Positions 1 to 11,882 of a DNA stretch of 11,882 nt are shown here, piece by piece. The stretch lies in the IMG/VR virus record IMGVR_UViG_2548876958_000016, one strand, 5' to 3'. A model generated the notes under the pieces. That model saw only the letters and a program-made list of their open reading frames with translations, did no database searches and was not told where the DNA came from. A program made the translations under genes and the position numbers. Each line of letters begins with the position of its first letter. Position 1 is the first letter of the stretch. The stretch is from a virus. Its lineage: Duplodnaviria; Heunggongvirae; Uroviricota; Caudoviricetes.

Positions 1-609
1 TTGTCTGGAGATTCAGGGGGCCAGTCTACCAAAGAACTGGGCGAATTATTGCAGGCACTGGACAAAAAAATATTCTCCCCCTACTACATCGCGTTAATCC
101 ACCTCCTGATTGTGTTCGGATGCCGGACGGTAGAACTGAGGTTATCGGAGATCAGCGAGTGGGATTTTACCGAAATGCTCTGGACCGTGCCGAAAGAACA
201 CAGCAAAACGAAGGTGGCAATATTCCGGCCCATACCGGAAGCAATACTGCCGTTCGTCACGCAGCTGGTGGAGCAGAACAGGCACACGGGCTTATTGCTG
301 GGGGAAGTGAAACAGGAAACAAGCGTGTCGCAGTACGGCAGATTAGCGCACAGGAGGCTAAATCACCCTCACTGGTCACTACATGACATCCGGCGCACCT
401 TTACAACGATGCTGAGCGATTTAGGCGTGGATCCTCACGTCGTGGAGCAGCTTACAGGCCACCAGATGCCAGGAATGCAGCGAGTTTATAATCATTCCCG
501 TTATCTGGATGCTAAACGCAATGCGCTGGATATGTGGATGGAGCGGTTAGGGATACTGGCGGGAACACATGAAAACGTAACCGCACTACCAGCAGCCAGA
601 AGAAAATAA
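1..609 (+). CDS. Tyrosine integrase (P4/CP4-57-like), C-terminal 202 aa; 5' end lies left of the window
   Basis: Frame-1 ORF runs from window edge to TAA at 607-609. Translation carries the tyrosine-recombinase catalytic box: HDIRRTF (His-x-x-Arg) and RVYNHSRY (catalytic Tyr). Followed in the same orientation by an alpA-like gene, as in CP4-57 (intA then alpA). Confidence 0.85.
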   Translation: MSGDSGGQSTKELGELLQALDKKIFSPYYIALIHLLIVFGCRTVELRLSEISEWDFTEMLWTVPKEHSKTKVAIFRPIPEAILPFVTQLVEQNRHTGLLLGEVKQETSVSQYGRLAHRRLNHPHWSLHDIRRTFTTMLSDLGVDPHVVEQLTGHQMPGMQRVYNHSRYLDAKRNALDMWMERLGILAGTHENVTALPAARRK

Positions 610-2158: not shown

Positions 2159-2392
2159 ATGAGCCAGGAAATCACACTACAACAGGCAGCAGAACGCGCC
2201 CACCAAATCGAAGTTATTTGCGCACTGGCAGAGGATTACCCTGGCATGATGACCGACAGCGAATCAGGGGCAATCATCGGCTTACTTAAACGCCTTAGCG
2301 GTGAGGTCTGCGTATTCCTGAGCGATGAACAGGAAAGAAGAACGCTTATTTCTAACGAAAAAAAATGCGGAGGGGTACACCATGTGCAATAA
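2159..2392 (+). CDS. Hypothetical protein (77 aa), first gene of the rightward early operon
   Basis: SD AGGGGG (2145-2150) 8 nt upstream of ATG 2159. Translation MSQEITLQQAAERAHQIEVICALAEDYPGMM... No family recognised. The 2102 start in the ORF track has no SD. Confidence 0.6.
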   Translation: MSQEITLQQAAERAHQIEVICALAEDYPGMMTDSESGAIIGLLKRLSGEVCVFLSDEQERRTLISNEKKCGGVHHVQ

Positions 2393-2828
2393 CATCCGTC
2401 CGGACGCAGCCGCCGCCGCACTCACTACGCTGATGCACGCGCTTATTGATATTGAATGCACGGCAGAGCTTGCACAAAAGGAAGAACGGGAGGAATACAC
2501 ATTGTTCGCCCTGGAATGTATCCGATACACCGCCACGCGGTCGCTGAATGACGCTAAAAATATTCTTGTTGCTGATTGTGAAAATGGGGGGGTTATGCGT
2601 GATGATCGTTTTAATTCCCTGAAACAGGAATTTTCCGGCGTTCCTGATGATGCGGCTGATGCGCTTTCGTCAATGCCAGAACTTATTAGAGCGGCTTTTT
2701 TCTTACTTTCCACGAGAGAATATAAATCAACGGGGCTTGATGTACTGAATATCGCCGCCGATTATGCGGAATATGTGGCAGAGGCGCGTTATAGAAGAAA
2801 ATTTCCTGAGGATGTAAGCCATGCGTGA
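2382..2828 (+). CDS. Hypothetical protein (148 aa)
   Basis: SD GGAGGGG (2369-2375), 6-nt spacer, ATG 2382; overlaps the upstream stop by 11 nt (translational coupling). Translation MCNNIRPDAAAAALTTLMHALIDIECTAELAQKEEREEY... No family recognised. Confidence 0.65.
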   Translation: MCNNIRPDAAAAALTTLMHALIDIECTAELAQKEEREEYTLFALECIRYTATRSLNDAKNILVADCENGGVMRDDRFNSLKQEFSGVPDDAADALSSMPELIRAAFFLLSTREYKSTGLDVLNIAADYAEYVAEARYRRKFPEDVSHA

Positions 2829-3054
2829 TATTTACCACCAAACAATAGACCGCGCATTTCTTGCACTTTCTCACAGTGAAAACATGCTGGAAATATTGCG
2901 CATATGGCTTGAAACACTTGGCGACAATGAACGCGACAAACAAAAATCAAGAATTGCCACAGCATTAATAACGCTTCTTGAGCCTGTAATAATGGAACTG
3001 CAAGAAATAGATCTATTGCACGACAGATATAAAGAACAGCACACCGGAGAATAA
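2821..3054 (+). CDS. Hypothetical protein (77 aa)
   Basis: ATG 2821 overlaps the upstream TGA (2826-2828), giving ATGCGTGA coupling. Translation MRDIYHQTIDRAFLALSHSENMLEILRIWLETLGDNERDKQK... No family recognised. Confidence 0.6.
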   Translation: MRDIYHQTIDRAFLALSHSENMLEILRIWLETLGDNERDKQKSRIATALITLLEPVIMELQEIDLLHDRYKEQHTGE

Positions 3055-3059
3055 AAATA

Positions 3060-3359
3060 ATGAAACTTAAATATTCTGGCTTAACTGCCAGTGGCAACAC
3101 TCACCCTAAATTTACGCGCGGTGATATTTACCGCGACCAGTACGGCGGCACGGTAATGATTAAGGACGTGGAAGAACGGCGCGTAACCTACCGCCGTGAA
3201 GGTTACGAATATGATTGCGTGATGCCTGTTTATCAGTTCCGGCGTGATTTTTCTCTGGTACAGACCGCGCCGCATAACGTGCCCACCAGCAACGCCAGGG
3301 CACGGGCAAACATCCAGAAGCTGAAAACCATGGTTAACGGATTCAGGGGCAAGAAATGA
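3060..3359 (+). CDS. Hypothetical protein (99 aa)
   Basis: GGAGA SD upstream of ATG 3060; its stop overlaps the helicase start (ATGA at 3356-3359). Translation MKLKYSGLTASGNTHPKFTRGDIYRDQYGGTVMIKDVEERR... No family recognised. Confidence 0.65.
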   Translation: MKLKYSGLTASGNTHPKFTRGDIYRDQYGGTVMIKDVEERRVTYRREGYEYDCVMPVYQFRRDFSLVQTAPHNVPTSNARARANIQKLKTMVNGFRGKK

Positions 3360-4756
3360 AAAGCGCACCGAACTTAAAAAAACAGCCTTACGACAAGATG
3401 ACCGAAGTCATTATTTTTGCGGGTAGTGATGCCTGGGCACATGCGAAACAGTGGCAGGAACAGGACGGGCGACTGGCTGGCGATAATGTGCCTCCCGTTG
3501 TGCTGGCTGATGATCAACTGGATGAACTGGCAGACCTGAGAATCATCGACGAGGGGCGCTATTGTGTCCGGCTGTACAAGGCAGGCCACATCAGGCCATC
3601 AAATATTAATGCCATTGCGCACAAGCTGGCGGCGGCGGGTGTAACTGATGCGAATTATTACCCCGAAGGGATGCACAGCCATATGCGGGAGAACTGGCGC
3701 GAATACCTGGAACGGGTGCGCGGGAAAGAGCCGGCGGAAGAAAAAAACCACCAGCGAAAAACCACGCTACCGATGAGCGTTGGATCTACCGGATACGACA
3801 CGCAACTGGATTACGTGGTTAAGGGGATTATTCCGGCGGTATCGCTATGCAGCATATACGGGGCTAGCGGGTCCTATAAATCATTCCTTGCCGGATCGTG
3901 GGCGTGCCATGTTGCCACTGGTCGCCAGTGGGGAGGCCGCAGGGTTGCACATGGTGCGGTTCTCTATGTGGTTGGTGAAGGCGGTATAGGTGTTCCGCGT
4001 CGTGTAAAAGCCTGGGAGGTTGTGCACGATGAGCAGGTGAAAAATCTGTATCTGGTAAACCGCCCCATCTTTCCGGCTGCCCCGCTTGATGTTGATGAAA
4101 TGGTTATCGCTGCCCGTCAGGTGGAGCGGGAAACGGGTAAACCTGTACGCATGATTATTCTGGATACGCTGGCGCGTTGCTTTGGTGGGAATGATGAAAA
4201 TGATTCCCGTGATATGGGGGCGTTTATCCGTGGTTGTGACGAACTGAAACGACGCACAGGGGCCACGGTGCTGGTGGTTCACCATTCCGGCAAGGATGAG
4301 ACGAAAGGCGCGCGCGGTTCCAGTGCATTTCGTGCTTCGCTGGATGCTGAATACCGGATACGCAGGGAGGACGCAGGAAGCGAAGCGCTGGTTATCTCAT
4401 GCACCAAAATGAAGGACGCGGAGGAACTCAAAGAAGCCGCATATGACTTACGCGTGGTGGAGCTTTTTACCGACGCTGACGGTGAATTAATCACGTCGCT
4501 GGTGGTGGTGGATGATCCGCGCCCTCCTGTTGAACTGGAGCGCATCGAGGAGGCAGGGAACAAGACGGAAAACCATACCGCGCTATGGGGGTGCATCCGT
4601 TCACGCACACAGAACGGCGACAAGTGCACGATCCCGCTGTTACGTGATGACATGAAAAAGCTGGGGTATGAAATGAAAAACTTCCGGCGCTGGCTGTACA
4701 AGCTGGAAAAAGATGGGGTTATTCGTATCGATGGGGATGATGTAGCGCCGCTATAA
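3356..4756 (+). CDS. Replication initiator/helicase, RecA-fold AAA ATPase (RepA/DnaB-like, PICI Rep-type), 466 aa
   Basis: Walker A GASGSYKS (within IYGASGSYKSFLAG), Walker B-like hhhhD (RMIILDTLARCFGG) and a VLVVHHSGKD motif typical of RepA/DnaB-family helicase domains. N-terminal ~150 aa is a separate domain, possibly origin-binding. Last gene of a coupled operon and immediately followed by an iteron array. Confidence 0.85.
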   Translation: MKSAPNLKKQPYDKMTEVIIFAGSDAWAHAKQWQEQDGRLAGDNVPPVVLADDQLDELADLRIIDEGRYCVRLYKAGHIRPSNINAIAHKLAAAGVTDANYYPEGMHSHMRENWREYLERVRGKEPAEEKNHQRKTTLPMSVGSTGYDTQLDYVVKGIIPAVSLCSIYGASGSYKSFLAGSWACHVATGRQWGGRRVAHGAVLYVVGEGGIGVPRRVKAWEVVHDEQVKNLYLVNRPIFPAAPLDVDEMVIAARQVERETGKPVRMIILDTLARCFGGNDENDSRDMGAFIRGCDELKRRTGATVLVVHHSGKDETKGARGSSAFRASLDAEYRIRREDAGSEALVISCTKMKDAEELKEAAYDLRVVELFTDADGELITSLVVVDDPRPPVELERIEEAGNKTENHTALWGCIRSRTQNGDKCTIPLLRDDMKKLGYEMKNFRRWLYKLEKDGVIRIDGDDVAPL

Positions 4757-4946
4757 AAGTGAGGAGCAAAAGCGAGGGGGATAGAAAGAGGGCCAAAATT
4801 AGCCCGCTCTCCCTCACTTTTCGACCTGTATACATCCTCAAAAGTGAGGGGTAAAAAAATACTTATGAAACACACACATAGAAAAACCGAAAATCCCAAC
4901 TGCGACGAAGTGAGACGCTTGAAAAAGTGAGGCGAAAAAGTGAGAG
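4755..4946. repeat. Iteron array (candidate satellite replication origin): repeated AAAAGTGAG(G/A)
   Basis: Direct copies at 4755-4764, 4840-4849, 4923-4932 and 4937-4946 (the last two 14 bp apart); a degenerate copy GAAGTGAGAC at 4908-4917; an inverted copy CCTCACTTTT at 4812-4821. All lie in the intergenic region directly downstream of the rep-like gene, the usual ori position in PICIs. Confidence 0.6.
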
Positions 4947-4956
4947 GTTGCGAGAA

Positions 4957-5208
4957 ATGACCCAAAAACGCAGAGACAGAACAGAGCCAAAATATAAAGC
5001 GTTAGACATGACTGAGCACACCTTAAAGGTGGCAATCAGAACGATAGACCGCCACACGCGGGAAGGATACGCGAAGGAACATCCCGACCTGATAAGCGCA
5101 TTCATGACCACGGCGGCGGCAAACTTTGCCACGCTGACAGAACGGGAGATTGCCGAAGCGGAACAGGTAACAACCATCAACGTTAAAACCGGAGAGGTGG
5201 AATTATGA
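4957..5208 (+). CDS. Hypothetical protein (~83 aa; track ORF starts at 4927 inside the iterons)
   Basis: ATG 4957 is the first in-frame start after the iterons; GAGG at 4943-4946 could serve as SD. The stop overlaps the ssb start (ATGA 5205-5208). Translation MTQKRRDRTEPKYKALDMTEHTLKVAIRTIDRHTREGYAKEHPDLISAF... An alternative start is ATG 5008. Confidence 0.5.
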   Translation: MTQKRRDRTEPKYKALDMTEHTLKVAIRTIDRHTREGYAKEHPDLISAFMTTAAANFATLTEREIAEAEQVTTINVKTGEVEL

Positions 5209-5615
5209 CGGCACAGATAGCCGCTTACGGGCGGCTGGTGGACGACCCGCAGGTAAAACAGACCAGCAAGGGCACACCGATGACGCTGGCGCGTATGGCG
5301 GTATCTTTGCCATGCAGCCAGGCACAGGACGGACAGGCGACGTTATGGTTATCGGTCATCGCATTTGGCAAACAGGCCGACTTCCTGGCTAAACATCAAA
5401 AAGGCGATGTTGCCAGCGTATCCGGCACGATGCAGGTAAGCCAGTGGACCGGACAGAACGGAGAAACGCGGCAGGGCTGGCAGGTTATCGCAGACAGCGT
5501 AATCAGTGCCCGCGCGGCACGTCCAGGCGGGAACAGACGCAAAACCACAGGCACACAGGGTAATCAGCCACCAGCGGGAGGCGATGACCCTTACGGTGAT
5601 GATATTTCGTTCTGA
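5205..5615 (+). CDS. ssb: Single-stranded DNA-binding protein (SSB-like OB-fold), 136 aa
   Basis: SD GGAGAGGTGG with 4-nt spacer. N-terminal GRLVDDPQV...LWLSVIAFGKQADFLAKHQKGDVASVSGTMQVSQWTGQNGETRQGWQVIAD follows the SSB OB-fold pattern (compare E. coli SSB GNLGQDPEV...[50 protein letters not shown]). A Gly/Pro-rich linker and acidic tail DDPYGDDISF resemble the canonical DFDDDIPF tail. Confidence 0.75.
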   Translation: MTAQIAAYGRLVDDPQVKQTSKGTPMTLARMAVSLPCSQAQDGQATLWLSVIAFGKQADFLAKHQKGDVASVSGTMQVSQWTGQNGETRQGWQVIADSVISARAARPGGNRRKTTGTQGNQPPAGGDDPYGDDISF

Positions 5616-5625
5616 GGGGGTGACG

Positions 5626-5898
5626 ATGGTACATGACCGCATAGCGGAGGAACTGGAGGCGAAAGGCTTTTACCGGAGGGCGGCGGCGCGATGGGGTGAA
5701 GTCATGCAGCTGGTGGAGACAGACAAGGAACGGCATCACATCACGATGCGACGGCTGGAATGTTCAAGGAAGGCACAGAGGGCACCGGAGCCGCCGGATA
5801 ATTTCGGAGACCTGAAAAAGGCAGTCGATCGCACTTATGCCGAAATGGGTATAGATGGTGCTGGTGATGAAATATGGCGCAATTACCAGGACAGCTAA
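5626..5898 (+). CDS. PerC-family transcriptional regulator-like protein (90 aa)
   Basis: SD GAGGGGG (5614-5620), 5-nt spacer, ATG 5626. Translation MVHDRIAEELEAKGFYRRAAARWGEVMQLVETDKERHHITMRRLECSRKAQ... matches the PerC-like motif (AEELEAKG-Y/W-RRAA-RW) as I recall it from prophage PerC homologues. The longer 5506 ORF in the track is an upstream extension overlapping ssb in another frame. Confidence 0.7.
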   Translation: MVHDRIAEELEAKGFYRRAAARWGEVMQLVETDKERHHITMRRLECSRKAQRAPEPPDNFGDLKKAVDRTYAEMGIDGAGDEIWRNYQDS

Positions 5899-5904
5899 TC
5901 AAAC

Positions 5905-5928
5905 AGCCGGAGAAATCCGGCTTTTTTT
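5905..5928 (+). terminator. Intrinsic terminator (copy 1 of a thrice-repeated GNRA-loop hairpin)
   Basis: AGCCGGA (5905-5911), loop GAAA, TCCGGCT (5916-5922), then a T-run ending at 5928; 6 nt after the perC-like stop. Confidence 0.7.
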
Positions 5929-6024
5929 GCACCAGTTGAAACGGTATGGCGCATTACCGGGTTTTCGTCACGGTCAGGCATAGTTACTATCTGAAACAAA
6001 CAGACACAACAGAGGAAAAAAACA

Positions 6025-6249
6025 ATGCCGATGAAATTTGATGAGATATTAAAACAGCGTGATAAATACCATGCTGACAACATGGAGACGATGAGCATCA
6101 ATGATTACCGCGCATTCCTGGAGACGGGCGCACTGATTGAAAAGGATCAGCATGGTTTTGTGAGATGTGCTCTATCCGGTGAAATGCTGGCGGTAAATCC
6201 TGAACAGATAGATGCATTGATAGAATTTCTGAAAGAGATCAGAGACTGA
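6025..6249 (+). CDS. Hypothetical protein (74 aa), monocistronic between terminators
   Basis: SD AGAGGA (6011-6016), 8-nt spacer, ATG 6025. Translation MPMKFDEILKQRDKYHADNMETMSINDYRAFLETGALIEKDQHGFVRCALSGEMLAVNPEQIDALIEFLKEIRD. No family recognised. Confidence 0.55.
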   Translation: MPMKFDEILKQRDKYHADNMETMSINDYRAFLETGALIEKDQHGFVRCALSGEMLAVNPEQIDALIEFLKEIRD

Positions 6250-6268
6250 GCCAGCACACAGCACACAT

Positions 6269-6291
6269 AGCCGGAGCAATCCGGCTTTTTT
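6269..6291 (+). terminator. Intrinsic terminator (copy 2 of the repeated hairpin)
   Basis: AGCCGGA (6269-6275), loop GCAA, TCCGGCT (6280-6286), T-run to 6291. Confidence 0.7.
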
Positions 6292-6300
6292 GCGCCCAAA

Positions 6301-6339
6301 AAAAGCCCGATAAGGTCAGAGGGTTCTTATCGGGCTTTT
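6301..6339. terminator. Bidirectional terminator-like hairpin (14-bp perfect stem)
   Basis: AAAAGCCCGATAAG (6301-6314) pairs perfectly with CTTATCGGGCTTTT (6326-6339) across an 11-nt loop. The A-run on one side and T-run on the other make it usable from either strand. Sits in tandem after copy 2. Confidence 0.6.
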
Positions 6340-6416
6340 GCATATGAGGTTTTTGGATGCACTGGCGTTCGTGATCGAGATAATCATTTCATAATTTGCA
6401 ACATAACTAAATATCA

Positions 6417-6477
6417 TTGCATAAAATGCAATTCTTATTATAATCAGGACTGGATAAACATCCAGTCCTGATTTTTT
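6417..6477 (+). promoter_or_regulatory. Candidate late (capsid-operon) promoter with a promoter-proximal hairpin plus T-run
   Basis: Perfect -10 TATAAT (6439-6444) with possible -35 TTGCAT (6417-6422, 16-bp spacer). An 11-bp inverted repeat TCAGGACTGGA/TCCAGTCCTGA (6443-6453 and 6460-6470) followed by TTTTTTT (6471-6477) lies between the -10 and the first late gene (ATG 6501). Confidence 0.45.
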
Positions 6478-6500
6478 TAGTCGAAGAGGAATTTCTTACT

Positions 6501-6707
6501 ATGGCTGAAGAGAAAAAAGGCGGTGTTTCGGTGTACATAAGCCCCGAAATCGTGGAGGTGCTCAAGCAGCGCCACAAAAAAAACTATGAAGCTGGCGTTG
6601 CGGCTGGACTGGATCCGCTGATGACGCCGGAGCCGTCGATAGGTTCACTTGTACGCTCTTATTTACTTGCGGCGCTTGGGATGCATAAAAATTATGGGGG
6701 TGAATAA
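6501..6707 (+). CDS. Small protein (68 aa), first gene of the capsid operon; possible RHH/CopG-like fold
   Basis: Translation MAEEKKGGVSVYISPEIVEVLKQRHKKNYEAGVAAGLDPLMTPEPSIGSLVRSYLLAALG...: a beta-strand (VSVYIS) followed by two helices resembles a ribbon-helix-helix, but this is tentative. Stop overlaps the capsid start (TAATG at 6705-6709). Confidence 0.5.
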   Translation: MAEEKKGGVSVYISPEIVEVLKQRHKKNYEAGVAAGLDPLMTPEPSIGSLVRSYLLAALGMHKNYGGE

Positions 6708-7762
6708 TGGCAGGCAAAGCAACGGCACTTAACACTAACCAGCTTTTCATGTACCTGAATCGCGGGGATATTGCGGATTTTAAATTCAGCCCTCTGTTTA
6801 CCACGCTGTTTTTCCCGAACGTGGCGACATTCAACACGCAGGACATCATGTTAGATAACCTGGATATTGAAGAAGTCACTATGTCGGCGTTTTGTTCGCC
6901 TATGGTTGGCAGCCAGGTTCAGCGCGATAAAGGGTACGAAACCAGCATTATCCGCCCTGGCTACATGAAGCCAAAACACGAAATCGATCCATTAAAAACA
7001 ATAATGCGCATGGCTGGAGAAGATCCGGCACAGCTTAACGATCCTACCTACCGCCGTATGCGCCTGATTACTGGCAACATGCGCCGCCAGATAAACGCCA
7101 TTAAGGCACGCGTTGAATGGCTGGCGGTGAATGCGGTAACGACCGGAAAAAACATCATTGAGGGCGAAGGCATAGAACGCTATGAAATCGACTGGAAGAT
7201 ACCGGAAAAAAACATCATAGAGCAGGCCGACGGTAAAAAATGGTCTGAGCAGGATAAAGACATACACGACCCAATATATGACATTGAACTATACGCAGAT
7301 CAGGCAGGTTGCCCCGCCAACGTCATGATTATGGGCGTTGATGTATGGCGCATGTTACGCAGCTTTAAAAAATTCCGTGAACTGTACGATCTCTCCCGTG
7401 GTTCAGAATCCGCCGCAGAGCTGGCATGTAAAAACCTGGGCGAAGTGGTGAGCTTTAAAGGCTATCTTGGTGATCTGGCCCTTATCGTCTATTCCGGCAA
7501 ATACACTGACAGCGACGGCACAGAAAAATATTTCCTTGAGCCTGATTTGCTTGTCCTGGGCAACACCAACAATAAAGGGCTGGTGGCCTATGGTGCGATT
7601 ATGGATCAGGACGCAGTAAGAACGGGGGCAACGCAAAACATGTACTACCCGAAAAACTGGATTGAGGACGGAGATCCGGCGATTGAGTACGTGCAGACGC
7701 ACAGCGCACCGCAGCCGGTTCCGGCAGATATTCGCAAATTTGTTACTGTCAAAATTGCTTAA
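6707..7762 (+). CDS. Major capsid protein, lambda gpE family (351 aa)
   Basis: SD GGGGG 6 nt upstream. Extended similarity to lambda E as I recall it: FKFSPLFTTLFF (lambda FKFDPLFLRLFF), RPGYMKPKHEIDP (TPGYVKPKHEVNP), DPTYRRMRLI (DPAYRRRRII), VSFKGYLGDLALIVYSGKY (VSYKGMYGDVAIVVYSGQY), LGNTNNKGLVAYGAIMDQDA (LGNTQARGLRTYGCIQDADA), YPKNWIEDGDPA (YPKNWVTTGDPA); length is close to lambda E (341 aa). Confidence 0.9.
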   Translation: MAGKATALNTNQLFMYLNRGDIADFKFSPLFTTLFFPNVATFNTQDIMLDNLDIEEVTMSAFCSPMVGSQVQRDKGYETSIIRPGYMKPKHEIDPLKTIMRMAGEDPAQLNDPTYRRMRLITGNMRRQINAIKARVEWLAVNAVTTGKNIIEGEGIERYEIDWKIPEKNIIEQADGKKWSEQDKDIHDPIYDIELYADQAGCPANVMIMGVDVWRMLRSFKKFRELYDLSRGSESAAELACKNLGEVVSFKGYLGDLALIVYSGKYTDSDGTEKYFLEPDLLVLGNTNNKGLVAYGAIMDQDAVRTGATQNMYYPKNWIEDGDPAIEYVQTHSAPQPVPADIRKFVTVKIA

Positions 7763-7773
7763 CGGGGGATTCT

Positions 7774-8109
7774 ATGGACACTCCATACATTGAGTTATTT
7801 GCAGGCAGTCAGCAGGTCGCCACGACGCTGGTACATTTTGCCGCTGATGCTGGCGTTATTCAGGAATTTACCCCGCTGATGCTGGCGGACAATGGCGAGT
7901 TTAAGCCGTGGGATGGTCAGGAATCTGGCAAGGCTGTTTATCTGACTTCGTATCCTGTGGACACGTCAAAGCAGAAATCAGCACAGTGTTACAAGACGGG
8001 GATATTCAATATTGCCGCCGTTAACTGGCCTGAGAGCGTCGACACCGATGCGAAAAAATGCGCCGCCTTTGCGGGTTCCGGCGTATCCGTTCAGCCGCTG
8101 GCCCGATAA
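7774..8109 (+). CDS. Head decoration protein, lambda gpD family (111 aa)
   Basis: SD GGGGGA upstream. TPLMLADNGEFKPWDGQ (lambda TPLMLDTSSRKLVAWDG), YKTGIFNIAAVNWPE (YKSGTFRYEDVLWPE), KKCAAFAGSGVSV (KKRTAFAGTAISIV); length matches gpD (110 aa). Gene order is E then D, the reverse of lambda. Confidence 0.85.
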   Translation: MDTPYIELFAGSQQVATTLVHFAADAGVIQEFTPLMLADNGEFKPWDGQESGKAVYLTSYPVDTSKQKSAQCYKTGIFNIAAVNWPESVDTDAKKCAAFAGSGVSVQPLAR

Positions 8110-8121
8110 GCAGGGGGAACG

Positions 8122-8535
8122 ATGGCAACGAATGAAAGCATCATGACGCTACCGCTGGCGAGTAAATTTAAAGCCGAAGCGCGGGCAATGGCTGACAGAG
8201 GTTTATCAACCTATGAGGCCGTATATCAACTAAACAAACTGGAAGAGCAGGACAAGCCGCGCGCTGATGCGATTATGGCGCTTCATGAGCATAAAGACTA
8301 TCAGCCGCTGTTACGTGCAATGGCAAACGTGCCATGTATTAGCGTCGATAATGCTCGTGAAATCCTGAACATGACCATAGAGCAGGAGCGCCCAAAGGTT
8401 GCACCAGAGCTTACCGCAGCCTTTGAAAACTTTATGGACATGCACAGCCCGCAAGCCGTATCAGCTGGCATGGCATACGATGGCAGAAACCAGGGCGATG
8501 ACGGCGACATCGATCGCATACTGAAAACCATCTGA
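8122..8535 (+). CDS. Hypothetical protein (137 aa), last gene of the capsid operon
   Basis: SD AGGGGGA (8112-8118), ATG 8122. Translation MATNESIMTLPLASKFKAEARAMADRGLSTYEAVYQLNKLEEQDKPRADAIMALHEHKDYQPLL... No family recognised. Its position after the capsid and decoration genes suggests a morphogenesis or packaging accessory role. Confidence 0.6.
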   Translation: MATNESIMTLPLASKFKAEARAMADRGLSTYEAVYQLNKLEEQDKPRADAIMALHEHKDYQPLLRAMANVPCISVDNAREILNMTIEQERPKVAPELTAAFENFMDMHSPQAVSAGMAYDGRNQGDDGDIDRILKTI

Positions 8536-8540
8536 GACAA

Positions 8541-8564
8541 GGCCGGAGAAATCCGGCTTTTTTT
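8541..8564 (+). terminator. Intrinsic terminator (copy 3 of the repeated hairpin)
   Basis: GCCGGA (8542-8547), loop GAAA, TCCGGC (8552-8557), T-run 8558-8564; almost base-for-base identical to copy 1. A second hairpin ACGGGTCC/GGACCCGT (8566-8573 and 8584-8591) follows and overlaps the start of cos. Confidence 0.7.
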
Positions 8565-8581
8565 ACGGGTCCTTTCCGGCA

Positions 8582-8640
8582 TATGGACCCGTTACGGGGC
8601 GGCGACCTCGCGGTTTTTCGCTATTTATGAGCCTTTTCAG
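8582..8640 (+). other. cos site 1: lambda-type cosN with a divergent cosB-side flank, oriented toward the small terminase gene
   Basis: GTTACGGGGCGGCGACCTCGCGGTTTTTCGCTATTTATGA (8591-8630) matches, with one mismatch, my recollection of the lambda cohesive-end region (GGGCGGCGACCT then CGCGGGTTTTCGCTATTTATGA); the 12-nt cohesive-end sequence sits at 8597-8608. After TTTATGA the sequence diverges from lambda cosB. Confidence 0.75.
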
Positions 8641-8702
8641 GGGGGTGGTGGTGGTTTTGTTGTTTGCTCTATCTTTATGAATGAAAAGGGAAAGATGCAA
8701 AC

Positions 8703-8740
8703 AATACACCAACCTGAAGCAGTAATTAAGTTGGTGTATT
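8703..8740. repeat. 11-bp inverted repeat immediately upstream of the small terminase start codon
   Basis: AATACACCAAC (8703-8713) and GTTGGTGTATT (8730-8740) separated by a 16-nt loop, ending 1 nt before ATG 8742. Candidate island-specific TerS-binding or translational control element. Confidence 0.45.
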
Positions 8741-8741
8741 A

Positions 8742-9284
8742 ATGAAATCGCACCTGATGAACAAAAAAAACATGGCGAAAAGCTGCCGTGTAAGTGCGAC
8801 AGCGTTCGACAAGTGGGGAGTGACTCCCGTTGAACGTAAAGGCCGTGAGGCGTTTTACGATGTTGCCAGCGTGATAGACAATAGGGTTAACAATGCAATT
8901 AGCCAGCTTACAAACGACAAAGGCGATATTGATGATGATGAACTCTTACGAGTCAGGATCAGATTACTGACAGCACAGGCGGAGGCGCAGGAACTTAAAA
9001 ACGAGCGCGATCGCGGTGACGTGATTGATACTGAGTTTTGCCTGTACGCGCTTTCAAAGCTGGCGAGTCAGATTTCATCAATCATGGACAGCCTCCCGCT
9101 TACTATGCAAAGGAGCTTCCCACAGATTACCCACGCCATGCTGGATAGGCTTAAAAGGGAAGTGGTTAAAGCCTGTAATGCCAGTGCCAGAGTTGCCGAC
9201 AACCTCCCACAGATACTGGCTGATTACTTGAAAGAAACAACCGGAAACGTACCGGAAAAGTTGCTACAGAAGAAAGGCGAGTAA
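8742..9284 (+). CDS. Terminase small subunit, lambda Nu1 family (180 aa; true start may be ATG 8757)
   Basis: Strong similarity to lambda Nu1 as recalled: LLTAQAEAQELKNERDRGDVIDTEFCLYALSKLASQISSIMDSLPLTMQRSFP (lambda LTRAQADAQELKNARDSAEVVETAFCTFVLSRIAGEIASILDGLPLSVQRRFP) and N-terminal MNKKNMAKS...FDKW (lambda MEVNKKQLADIFGASIRTIQNW). The C-terminal region that interacts with the large subunit in lambda looks conserved; the N-terminal DNA-recognition region is more diverged. Confidence 0.85.
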   Translation: MKSHLMNKKNMAKSCRVSATAFDKWGVTPVERKGREAFYDVASVIDNRVNNAISQLTNDKGDIDDDELLRVRIRLLTAQAEAQELKNERDRGDVIDTEFCLYALSKLASQISSIMDSLPLTMQRSFPQITHAMLDRLKREVVKACNASARVADNLPQILADYLKETTGNVPEKLLQKKGE

Positions 9285-9299
9285 CAGACGCGCAATTAT

Positions 9300-9489
9300 T
9301 GAACAAAACTGAGAAACGACATGAAAGCGTCATAAATCGCCATTTTAGATGATTACCGTGTCGTTTCTTTTTATTGTGTATCTATTTAAAAACAAATAGT
9401 TATGTTCGAGAAGTACCGACATGCTTTTTCCAGAAAAATTTTCATAAACAGATAAAAACCGCGAGGTCGCCGCCCCGTAACGGGCCATA
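9300..9489 (-). other. cos site 2: inverted lambda-like cos (cosN plus cosB-like flank) on the minus strand, pointing back toward terS
   Basis: Reverse complement of 9454-9489 equals the site-1 core. Read on the minus strand it continues GGGCGGCGACCTCGCGGTTTTTATCTGTTTATGAAAATTTTTCTGG..., then CATAACTATTTGTTTTTAAATAGATAC, AAAAGAAACGACA and GTCGTTTCTC. These resemble lambda TTTATGAAAATTTTCCGG, the I1-region CATAACTTAATGTTTTTATTTAAAATAC and R-site-like GTCGTTTCC elements, from memory. Confidence 0.75.
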
Positions 9490-9539
9490 ATTCCAGGAAG
9501 GACCCGACGACACCAGACTATCAGAGCGATGGGGGCACA

Positions 9540-9821
9540 ATGACAGAAGCCGAACTACTGGGATTAATCCGCCGCGTCGCCGGAATCAGCCAGCAGCATG
9601 ACGAACAGGCCACACAGCCGGACAGCGTGACCGCTGAAAATTATGTGCGTGTTGTAGCGGAAGTGATGCGCCGTGATGGTATAGAACTTAATGGCGTTGA
9701 TATGCGCAACATACGGAACCGCGTTCTTGAAATGCTGGCCTACAATCGCCGCGTTGAACTGTATCGGGAGAAAGAAAAAATAACGTACCACTGGAAGAAG
9801 CCGGAATGGCTGCGGCGGTAA
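9540..9821 (+). CDS. Hypothetical protein (93 aa) in the terminal accessory position of the island
   Basis: SD GGGGG (9531-9535), 4-nt spacer. Translation MTEAELLGLIRRVAGISQQHDEQATQPDSVTAENYVRVVAEVMRRDGIELNGVDMRNIRNRVLEMLAYNRRVELYREKEKITYHWKKPEWLRR. No family recognised. Confidence 0.5.
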   Translation: MTEAELLGLIRRVAGISQQHDEQATQPDSVTAENYVRVVAEVMRRDGIELNGVDMRNIRNRVLEMLAYNRRVELYREKEKITYHWKKPEWLRR

Positions 9822-10421
9822 CTTGCTGATATTCCCGATAACGCAAAATTGCGCTGGCTACATCCCTCACATCTGAGGACTGTTAACCAGAAGGCCGGAA
9901 TATATTCACAAACTACGAAATTTTCGTAGTTTAATTAATGGTCAGATTAATCGCTAACCCGCTGATATTTTCGGAAACCTCAATTTGAGGAAGTCGGAAG
10001 CGTCACCCTTCATATTCTGAATGGTCATAATGACCACGCAGACCATCAAGGCAACCACAACGAACATCGTTACGGTTGGAGCTTTTACCCCACTGGGGGA
10101 AAGGTATTACGATAATCATAACACCTACCGAACAGGTAAAACCCACCAGCCTGATTAACAGTTAACCGGAAAAAAATCCGGTAGCCCCGTTATGGGGATC
10201 CCCATATCGACATTAACGCCCCTCATGAATTGGTGCGCTTCCCCCTGGAAAGATTACCCGCCTGTATATTTCTTGTGTCTATTTGTTCCACGTTGTTTCA
10301 TACAGTGCACCGAACGGTGTAGTTAATGGTGTAGTCAATTTGCTGTTTTTAGCACTTTTTGCAGTGTGGGTTGTTTAATTAAATCAATGGTTTGCCTTGC
10401 TGTGGTGATAAAAGGACATAT

Positions 10422-11882
10422 TTATTCATCTTTCGGCGCAGAATGCTGGCGACCAAAAATCACCTCCATCCGCGCACCGCCCAGCATGCTCTCTCCGGCG
10501 ACGATTTTACCCTCATATTGCTCGGTGATTTCGCGGGCTACCGCCAGCCCTACACCTTGCCCAGGGCGTAAAGTATCAACCCGTTGACCACGGTCGAAAA
10601 TGACCTCTCGCTTGCTTAATGGAATACCGGGGCCATCATCCTCGACCACAATATAGAGATGCTCGTCGGTTTGCCTTGCAGAAATTTCGACAAACTCGAG
10701 GCAATATTTACAGGCATTATCCAGCACGTTGCCCATCACCTCGACAAAATCGTTCTGCTCACCGACAAAGCTGATCTCTGGCGAAATATCGAGAGAGATA
10801 TTGACCCCTTTGCGTTGATACACTTTGTTCAGCGCTGAGGTGAGATTGTCCAGCAGTGGGGCGACCGGATGCAGCTCGCGGCTGAGCAATGTCCCGCCGC
10901 GCATACTGGCACGATGCAGGTAGTAGCCAATTTGCTGTGAAATGCGGCTGATTTGCTCCAGCATTACCGGCTCAGCATCACTGACGCTCATCTTTTCACT
11001 ACGCAGAGAACGCAGCGTACTTTGCAGCACCGCCAGTGGCGTTTTCAGACTATGGGTCAGGTCGGTGAGCGTCGTACGGTATTTGTCGTAACGTTCGCGT
11101 TCACTTTTTAACAATCGGTTCAGGTTTCGTACCAGACTGGTCAGTTCTCGCGTTGTGGCTGGATTGAGCAATTCGCGGTTATGTTCTTCCAGTTCGCGGA
11201 CTTCTTTTGCCAGGGCTTCGATGGGGCGTAAACTCCACCAGGCGGCGACCCACAGCAGCGGGATCACTAACAGCAGATTGGCTGAGAGCACATAGATAAA
11301 CCAGCTCCAGACCATATAGGAACTTTTTAGCTCCACCGGAATGGTATCCACCACCACAATGGTTAATTTTGGCATCCGCGATGTTGCCGGGTAGACGTTT
11401 ACTGCCACCGAGTGGGTCATCTCCGCGTCGTCATCATCTTCCCGCACTTCCTGCAACTGTTGCTGTATCGAATGATCTCCACTCAGCAAGAGGCTGGTAT
11501 CGTTAACATCCGCTTCAATTTCATGAAAACCATTCGATTTCAGCCAGTCAGGCTGGATCATCTTCATCAGCCAGGGCACGTCACGTTGCGCCCATAAAAG
11601 CTGCCCGTTCTCATCATAAATTAGCGTCATGGTGGGGCTTTGCTTGTCGATATTTTCGGGTAACTCGACATGCAACTTATTGTTTTCCCACTTCGCAAGG
11701 GTATAGAACAGATTGCTCTCGCCACGTAACAGCCGAAACGTAGTTTTATCGAAACTGACGCTATAACCGATCAGCGCGACCATTCCGTAGGCAAGCGAAA
11801 GCACCAGTACTACCGCAGCCGTTGCCAACAGAAAACGTACCCGCAGTGAGAGCGGGAAAAAAAGACGCAGTAATTTTTTCAT
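10422..11882 (-). CDS. phoQ: Sensor histidine kinase PhoQ of the PhoP/PhoQ two-component system (486 aa, complete)
   Basis: Translation begins [40 protein letters not shown]..., has the acidic periplasmic patch EDDDDAE, the phospho-acceptor His box ([12 protein letters not shown]) and G-box motifs (DDGPGIP, GQGVGL). It matches E. coli PhoQ as I recall it in length and sequence. The window ends exactly at its start codon. Confidence 0.97.

Follow-up and report, generated by a model that had tools for sequence, protein, structure and literature searches.

The stretch of DNA considered here (11,882 nucleotides from IMG/VR record IMGVR_UViG_2548876958_000016, Caudoviricetes), called the window in the following, carries a phage satellite of the type known as phage-inducible chromosomal island (PICI). 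It begins within an integrase gene, whose 3′ end occupies positions 1-609, and its right part holds phoQ (10422-11882, minus strand). The late region of the island encodes homologues of the lambda major capsid protein gpE, the lambda decoration protein gpD and the lambda small terminase (TerS) Nu1. A sequence-only reading of the same DNA had regarded this gene set as unusual among satellites, and had proposed a hybrid particle in which a satellite shell, possibly of smaller size, is combined with the portal, protease, large terminase (TerL) and tail of a helper phage. In the present work, we examine this proposal by means of profile searches, comparison with related islands, and the published experiments on close relatives. 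The gene content and the TerS-based specificity stand, while the claimed rarity is contradicted and the hybrid small capsid is disfavoured.

The late region contains the following features, with positions given in window coordinates.

6416-6432, plus strand: palindrome ATTGCAT-AAA-ATGCAAT, seen in the sequence, candidate operator of the capsid operon
6437-6442, plus strand: perfect TATAAT next to the palindrome, candidate regulated promoter
6442-6473, plus strand: hairpin with a 14-bp stem and a T-run, from the terminator scan, overlapping the -10 element
6501-6707, plus strand: p68, 68 aa, phrog_3255 (8.5e-46), with a stop codon that overlaps the capsid start
6707-7762, plus strand: gpE-like major capsid protein (MCP), HK97 fold, 351 aa, Pfam PF03864 (Phage_cap_E, 1.7e-49) and phrog_29 (9e-107)
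7774-8109, plus strand: gpD-like head decoration protein (Dec), 111 aa, Pfam PF02924 (HDPD, 1.3e-17; 64.5 bits against a cut-off of 29.1)
8122-8535, plus strand: p137, all-helical, 137 aa, similar to the C-terminus of lambdoid protease/scaffold proteins
8542-8564, plus strand: terminator-like hairpin GCCGG-AGAAAT-CCGGC followed by T7, end of the capsid operon; the element is repeated in locus L001 (family D3), introduced below
8567-8741, plus strand: cos1, with a cosQ-like flank, cosN GGGCGGCGACCT (8597-8608) and a unique cosB running into the TerS gene
8742-9284, plus strand: Nu1-family TerS, full length, 180 aa, Pfam PF07471 (Phage_Nu1, 84 bits against a cut-off of 30)
9285-9535, minus strand: cos2, inverted, with cosN at 9464-9475 and a helper-type (phage-21-like) cosB containing R3, I1, R2 and R1-like elements
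9540-9821, plus strand: p93, conserved, last gene of the island, phrog_1561 (3.3e-57), present in CFT073, IHE3034 and NCTC9112, dN/dS ca 0.15

The gpE-, gpD- and Nu1-like calls made from the sequence are thus borne out by the Pfam matches, and the three proteins are 44%, 36% and 35% identical to lambda E, D and Nu1, respectively. The p68 and p137 genes and the two inverted cosN sites lie within the same coordinates and were absent from that reading.

Identity and borders of the island

A complete copy of the island, 97-98% identical to the window, is found in E. coli NCTC9112 (locus L001). In this locus, the integrase gene (7353-8582) follows directly after roxA and is the first gene of the island, and the last gene is followed by phoQ. 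A 75-nt direct repeat (D1, core GGTGTAGTTAATGGTGTAGT) is located at 7257-7331 and 17880-17954, with a spacing of 10,623 bp, and corresponds to attL and attR. With these repeats and the roxA and phoQ flanks, the element is therefore a 10.6-kb island, and nothing is hidden to the left of the window. The insertion between roxA and phoQ is the same site as that of EcCICFT073 (O-island 51). The following features identify the element in the window.

1-609, plus strand: tyrosine integrase, C-terminal part, from the list of open reading frames (ORFs); the full gene is the first island gene in L001
975-1163, plus strand: AlpA-family regulator, a PICI hallmark, Pfam Phage_AlpA (1.5e-16), coordinates mapped from the L001 annotation
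3060-3359, plus strand: DUF4222 gene (8.4e-24), preceding the helicase gene
3356-4756, plus strand: RepA-like helicase/replication initiator, Pfam AAA_25 (2.4e-43), phrog_2850
5205-5615, plus strand: single-stranded-DNA-binding protein (SSB), Pfam SSB (1.7e-16)
5623-5898, plus strand: PerC-family transcriptional regulator, Pfam PerC (4e-43)
10266-10340, plus strand: attR, core GGTGTAGTTAATGGTGTAGTCAATT at 10316-10340, right end of the island, mapped onto the window from the L001 repeat D1

The families and the gene order of L001 agree with the earlier view of a satellite with an integrase, alpA and a replication module. The integrase at the left end and alpA have the same orientation, and the island has its own replication module, a size of 10.6 kb, att bounds and no tail or lysis genes, which is the organization characteristic of Gram-negative PICIs. 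No tail or lysis family was found among the scanned proteins of 2159-9821, and none is annotated across the whole L001 island. Likewise, no gene for a portal, protease, TerL, HNH or connector protein is present between attL and attR according to Pfam, PHROGs and the L001 annotation. The absence of a portal, protease and TerL, which had been noted from the window, hence extends to the DNA on its left, where L001 has the integrase as the first gene after roxA.

On this basis, we assign the element, with a probability of roughly 80%, as a classical, non-capsid-forming Gram-negative cos-type PICI of 10.6 kb that is packaged into phage-sized heads built by its helper. Among 5426 complete E. coli genomes, 357 contain at least 80% of the whole window, and the capsid and TerS cassettes are present in 592 and 594, respectively.

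Relation to known satellites

The gene set is already catalogued, and both MCP and TerS are near-identical to those of published PICI members. It constitutes the standard late region of classical Gram-negative PICIs (PMC6092414) and is not unusual among satellites; of the 29 reference Gram-negative PICIs, 21 have a major capsid gene, which is not required for their transfer (PMC10111431).

EcCICFT073, the prototype Gram-negative cos-PICI (Fillol-Salom 2018, 2019; locus L002), occupies the same roxA-phoQ site and shares int, alpA, helicase, SSB, PerC, p68, MCP (95% identical), Dec, p137, p93 and the gene order with the window, and it has two inverted cosN sites at the same positions. It differs in the sequences between these sites, where it has other cosB sequences and RppA (c1503, 144 aa), which needs the helper TerS. 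RppA is devoid of the TerL-binding end and acts by capturing the helper TerS (PMC6739421, PMC9026076). Proteins of the Rpp type have 139-154 aa and no TerL-binding C-terminus, while the protein in the corresponding slot of the window has 180 aa and is Nu1-like over its full length; no similarity between it and RppA was detected (E 1.3).

EcCIIHE3034, inserted at the cspD-clpS site (Fillol-Salom et al. 2018, ISME J) and listed among the TerS-encoding PICIs in 2018 (PMC6092414), has the same late module, i.e. p68, MCP, Dec, p137, cos, TerS, inverted cos and p93. At the amino acid level, its TerS, Dec and MCP are 99.4%, 100% and 94% identical to those of the window. It has, on the other hand, another integrase, another att site, and a D5/primase-type replication protein instead of the RepA-like helicase.

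The direct experiments come from EcCICFT073, in which c1499 is the putative capsid protein and c1500 the head decoration protein (PMC6092414). Deletion of either gene left both the interference with lambda and the transfer by the resident helper unchanged, and a cat marker in place of c1499 even led to higher transfer (PMC6092414). Transfer was also still possible with an insertion in c1501, the p137 homologue, and all packaged DNA was phage-sized (PMC6092414). It should be noted that these deletions were made in an Rpp-type variant and with three helpers only. Literature searches for subsequent functional studies of the capsid or decoration genes of PICIs, or of the TerS of cos-PICIs, gave none.

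The comparison can be extended to other satellites. The capsid-forming PICIs (cf-PICIs; EcCIEDL933, Alqurainy et al. 2023) share the int-alpA-rep backbone and also have their own capsid protein and TerS. They differ in having a portal, protease, head-tail connectors, TerL and HNH, and in making their own small capsids, and the window lacks this set. In the pathogenicity islands of Staphylococcus aureus (SaPIs), a satellite small terminase, TerS(S), redirects the helper TerL. The concept is the same here but the sequences are unrelated, and SaPI1 uses pac (headful) packaging whereas the window has cos sites. An effect on capsid size is demonstrated for SaPIs, while none is seen for EcCICFT073. 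SaPIbov5 has a satellite capsid homologue, Ccm, which again shares the concept with the MCP of the window and is unrelated in sequence. P4-like satellites are characterized by Sid, Psu, the alpha primase and a P2-type cos; these families were not hit here, and the cosN of the window is of lambda type.

Small terminase and cos sites

We now consider the packaging module. The alignment of the TerS with lambda Nu1 is end to end, comprising residues 6 to 166 of the Nu1 alignment and thereby the C-terminal part, which in lambda-like TerS contains the TerL-binding domain (Murialdo and Feiss, PMC9026076). The nearest phage protein is gp1 of N15, with 46% identity in an alignment that takes in both ends, and the dN/dS of the gene is 0.15-0.18. 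Members of the Nu1 family have an N-terminal winged-HTH domain and a C-terminal TerL-binding segment, and both ends are covered by the two alignments. Sequence searches of the PDB gave no match for TerS, p93 or p137, so that TerS, at the phmmer level, has no close relative in the solved domains of RppC or Nu1.

The two halves of the protein appear to have different relationships. The DNA-binding domain is of N15 type and has the two deletions that N15 gp1 shows when compared with lambda Nu1. The C-terminal half is PICI-specific, with the motif SSIMDSLPLTMQR...ADNLPxILxDYLxETTGNVPEKL and a 12-aa extension that is common only to other PICI TerS proteins (loci L008 and L010) and is missing from the lambda, N15 and phage-21-type TerS. 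This shared half is combined with an N15-like DNA-binding domain in the window and L010 (10948-11490) and with a 21-like one in L008 (11138-11722, minus strand), which suggests domain shuffling.

The TerS gene is bracketed by two perfect copies of the lambda cosN 12-mer in inverted orientation, at 8597-8608 (plus strand) and 9464-9475 (minus strand). The first of these lies 134 bp 5′ of the TerS gene, as the Nu1-family layout requires. The order cosQ-cosN-cosB-terS is the same as at the gp1 locus of phage N15 and the Nu1 locus of lambda, the lambda cosN being identical over 12 nt. In these phages, terL comes after terS, whereas no terL follows in the window.

In register, the cosB of cos1 differs from those of lambda, N15 and the CFT073 helper. 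The core sequence of the R3 element of N15 (TTGTTGTTT) is present in it at a displacement of ca 9 bp, and one cos site of a sister island (L004) contains the N15 R3 in exact form (AGGTTGTTGTTTAAT, bp 49-63). The cosB of cos2 (9285-9463, minus strand), on the other hand, is over bp 45-90 85% identical to the cos of the icd prophage of CFT073, the helper of EcCICFT073 (L002, 39745-39885), and 65% identical to that of lambda. It shares with the prophage cos the R3-like element CATGTCGGTACTTCTCG, followed by I1, R2 and R1-like elements. From this anatomy, we infer that the island TerS has its cognate site in cos1, and that cos2 would be either a site usable by the unmodified helper terminase or a relic of an L008-like arrangement. 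The island may thus have two packaging sites, one specific to the satellite and one of helper type. The earlier suggestion that the TerS provides a satellite-specific packaging specificity is, with a full-length Nu1-like protein encoded beside cosN and cosB, plausible.

Pairs of cosN sites are also present in the relatives, at 2559 and 3309 in L002, 11097 and 11867 in L004, and 15000 and 15878 in L006. Outside the cosN sites and through both of them, the window is near-identical to CFT073, and from ca 25 bp inside each site the two sequences are unrelated. The interior encodes TerS in the window, IHE3034 and NCTC9112, and RppA or a 146-aa Rpp-like protein in CFT073 and 2014C-3338. With near-identical flanks and unrelated interiors, the inverted cos pair borders an exchangeable TerS/Rpp packaging-specificity cassette. 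We found no description of such a cos-bounded cassette in the PICI literature cited. In L008, the TerS with the 21-like DNA-binding domain adjoins a 21-like cosB. An interpretation of this locus as a simple inversion of the same cassette was also considered, but it is ruled out by the different cosN type and by the 21-like TerS domain beside the 21-like cosB.

The capsid operon

The MCP matches PF03864 with 169 bits (cut-off 22.9) over residues 28-349, its alignment with lambda gpE extends over 327 aa, and its identity to the capsid protein encoded by the icd prophage of CFT073 is 46%. It is also ca 95% identical to PDB entry 3BQW (‘putative capsid protein of prophage’, E. coli CFT073), which is c1499. 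Dec matches the solved gpD and SHP structures (PDB 1TD0 and 1C5E).

Selection was analysed over five islands, in all of which every ORF is intact. The dN/dS values are 0.10-0.22 for MCP (dS up to 0.28), 0.05-0.15 for Dec and 0.04-0.31 for p137. The capsid and decoration genes are thus under purifying selection, with dN/dS of ca 0.1.

Exact-protein look-ups show that MCP homologues at 52-69% identity are all in PICI-like contexts, in which int, alpA and a primase or helicase are followed by MCP and Dec and, in some cases, by a Nu1-like gene. A portal or TerL of their own is never present. PICIs with this core of MCP and Dec occur in Salmonella, Edwardsiella and Serratia and in further lineages of E. 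coli. A scan of genome contigs with the capsid protein gave no confirmed loci, such that the context in other species comes from the look-ups. Among the PICI capsid proteins, the identity is 50-95%, against 38-46% between them and the E proteins of phages, which share 59-81% with one another. By sequence identity, the PICI capsid proteins form a separate clade across Enterobacterales. The gap towards phage E indicates that the MCP/Dec pair is specific to satellites and of old descent, rather than recently acquired from a helper.

Some of the relatives are located inside prophage late genes (L011, 1511-1786 and 12309-13073; L012, 1-625 and 10908-11681; L014). One insertion splits a lambdoid capsid E gene and another, in Edwardsiella, a lambdoid portal gene. 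One relative in Salmonella sits in the tail region of a P2-like prophage, which is odd for a carrier of a lambda-type capsid gene.

The third protein of the operon, p137, resembles the end of a lambdoid protease/scaffold. Its residues 49-131 align at 39% identity (E 3e-11) with positions 416-493, in the last 85 residues, of the S49 peptidase (501 aa) encoded by the icd prophage of CFT073, and it matches phrog_53, a head-maturation-protease profile, at positions 495-567 of 583 (1.7e-10). A resemblance to an internal repeat within this S49 fusion of protease and scaffold is seen as well. The C-terminal part of lambda gpC is the nested scaffold Nu3, and the nested nu3 coding sequence is present in the lambda annotation. 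The reading we prefer, judging from these alignments, is that p137 resembles the C-terminal end of a gpC/Nu3-type protease/scaffold. SaPI CpmB carries the capsid-binding C-terminus of the helper scaffold, and the parallel with p137 is one of analogy only. The p137 family is narrow, being confined to E. coli, and its AlphaFold2 model is helical with low confidence (pLDDT 52). The label ‘phage head-tail connector protein’, given by NCBI to p137 homologues, was rejected, with no supporting profile in Pfam, PHROGs or NCBIfam; no NCBIfam family was in fact found for any late protein.

Upstream of these genes, the palindrome occurs once per locus, ca 280 bp 5′ of the capsid gene, in the window, L001, L004, L006, L008, L009 and L012. 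These seven loci include Edwardsiella, and the chance expectation in the window is 0.07. The hairpin at 6442-6473 has compensatory changes in the stem, CAGGAC/GTCCTG in the window versus CATAAC/GTTATG in CFT073, and probably blocks read-through from upstream. In all, there are three terminator-like hairpins between the capsid operon and the upstream genes. With its dedicated palindrome and promoter and these three terminators, the set of capsid genes seems to be regulated as a unit of its own.

The first gene of the operon, p68, gave an AlphaFold2 model with pLDDT 74, consisting of an extended N-terminus and two helices, and a search of the PDB with this fold gave no significant match (best E 1.8). 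A ribbon-helix-helix protein would be our guess. There are two p68 alleles, ca 69% identical to each other, one in the window and IHE3034 and the other in CFT073, NCTC9112 and 2014C-3338. The adjacent capsid gene is 94-97% identical, which shows that the late module is mosaic on a fine scale.

Proposed mode of packaging

The following scheme can be proposed for the island as a classical PICI. In the first step, as suggested by the published work on the family, a lambdoid helper would induce alpA, leading to excision and to replication into concatemers. Next, the island TerS would bind the cosB of cos1 through its N15-type DNA-binding domain, and its C-terminal half would recruit the helper large terminase, which would cut the lambda-identical cosN. 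While the anatomy of this step is seen in the window, the functions are assigned by homology. The inverted cos2, with its helper-type cosB, could in addition let the unmodified helper terminase package the island. In the third step, by extension from EcCICFT073, concatemers of ca four units (4 x 10.6 = 42.5 kb, 88% of the lambda length) would fill phage-sized helper heads. The gpE-like, gpD-like and p137 genes would, finally, be a separately promoted and conserved operon with an accessory role. The gpE- and gpD-like genes are dispensable for both transfer and interference in EcCICFT073 with the helpers tested, and therefore we consider their role to be accessory. Most likely, the island capsid proteins give subunits to heads only with particular helpers or under particular conditions.

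A number of points weigh against this assignment. Strong purifying selection and strict pairing of MCP and Dec are hard to reconcile with a dispensable role. For EcCIIHE3034, with nearly the same TerS, there was barely any transfer by the resident prophages (PMC6092414, Table 1). Furthermore, the binding of TerS to cos1 and to the helper TerL is predicted from homology, and the identity of the helper, the use of cos1 versus cos2, and the head size are taken by analogy from EcCICFT073, which is of Rpp type.

Alternative explanations

The main rival is the one closest to the sequence-only proposal. In this scenario, the MCP, Dec and p137 of the island would build a satellite-specific and possibly smaller shell on the helper portal, with the helper protease, and the helper TerL would be directed by the island TerS, with helper tails completing the particle. 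Several of the observations above are in line with it, namely the constant pairing of the capsid protein with its own decoration protein, the purifying selection on both genes, the old and separate clade of the PICI capsid proteins, and the operon with its own conserved promoter and operator. The likeness of p137 to the capsid-binding end of the helper scaffold, analogous to SaPI CpmB, can be added to these, and a small head would suit a genome of 10.6 kb that has a cos and a TerS of its own. As to the decoration protein, lambda gpD binds only expanded, filled shells. For a capsid and decoration pair under selection, a hybrid shell is also the interpretation that comes naturally.

The experimental results on EcCICFT073, however, speak against a satellite shell. 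The island, with a 95% identical MCP, was still transferred after deletion of the capsid or decoration gene or insertion into c1501, a marker in place of c1499 raised the transfer, and the virion DNA was phage-sized only (PMC6092414), which contradicts a hybrid particle or small capsid. Because these are the sole direct experiments and they point in the other direction, we hold the shell model to be unlikely, although it is the main rival. As the tests were limited to the Rpp-type variant and three helpers, the hybrid shell is, for a TerS-type island such as the present one, to be called disfavoured. It is conceivable, at a similarly low probability, that TerS-type islands with their natural helper do build a satellite shell on the helper portal from their own gpE-like, gpD-like and scaffold-tail-like proteins. 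The null phenotype of EcCICFT073 would in that case reflect the Rpp variant or the helpers tested.

Another option is that MCP, Dec and p137 have an anti-phage function, titrating the head proteins of lambdoid phages that enter the cell, or co-assembling with them, so that head assembly is spoiled. We consider this somewhat less probable still. It would account for genes that are conserved yet not needed for transfer (PMC6092414), co-assembly at 38-46% identity to phage E would probably be defective, and a comparable case is known from SaPIbov5, whose capsid homologue Ccm interferes with the helper (cited in PMC6092414). The deletion of c1499 or c1500, on the other hand, left the interference with lambda in place, although RppA would mask such an effect, and a poison subunit would have no obvious need for a cognate decoration protein.

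Finally, the view that the E, D and Nu1 genes are head remnants of a decaying lambdoid prophage next to an integrase, to which the incomplete head module (portal, protease and TerL missing) could point, is excluded by the ORFs being intact in every island examined with dN/dS of ca 0.1, by the linkage of the E and D homologues to int, alpA and rep in many genomes, the same core being combined, in several genera, with integrases, att sites and replicases that differ, and by the clean att repeats that bound the 10.6-kb element.

Upstream part of the island

The remaining part of the island consists of small ORFs, which form a block between alpA and the DUF4222 and helicase genes. Two of them, on the minus strand, face the rightward operon, encoding 57 aa (1664-1837; YlcI/YnfO-type, weakly Arc-like) and 62 aa (1433-1621). 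The stretches of L001 that are homologous to the 1221-2392/1433-1837 region are annotated as Icd-like cell-division-inhibitor genes, one of which is a pseudogene. The region 1221-2392, with the minus-strand ORFs at 1433-1837, may be the regulatory switch of the island. A 74-aa ORF with its own terminator (6025-6249, phrog_1957) is present in the window and missing from the NCTC9112 island, which explains the two-piece alignments obtained with the window. Scans of the window for Rfam families and tRNAs were empty.

Implications

As a rediscovery of a catalogued gene set, the present result leaves existing knowledge unchanged. It does, however, draw attention to a loose end, namely that the MCP/Dec pair is under purifying selection in hundreds of E. 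coli genomes and in several genera of Enterobacterales and has no phenotype in the one system tested. The TerS/Rpp cassette with its inverted cos borders, the scaffold-tail-like p137 and the dedicated operator make the question of the capsid role testable. If the shell reading were true, the TerS-type islands would be an intermediate class between the classical PICIs, which steal whole heads, and the cf-PICIs, which take only the tails.

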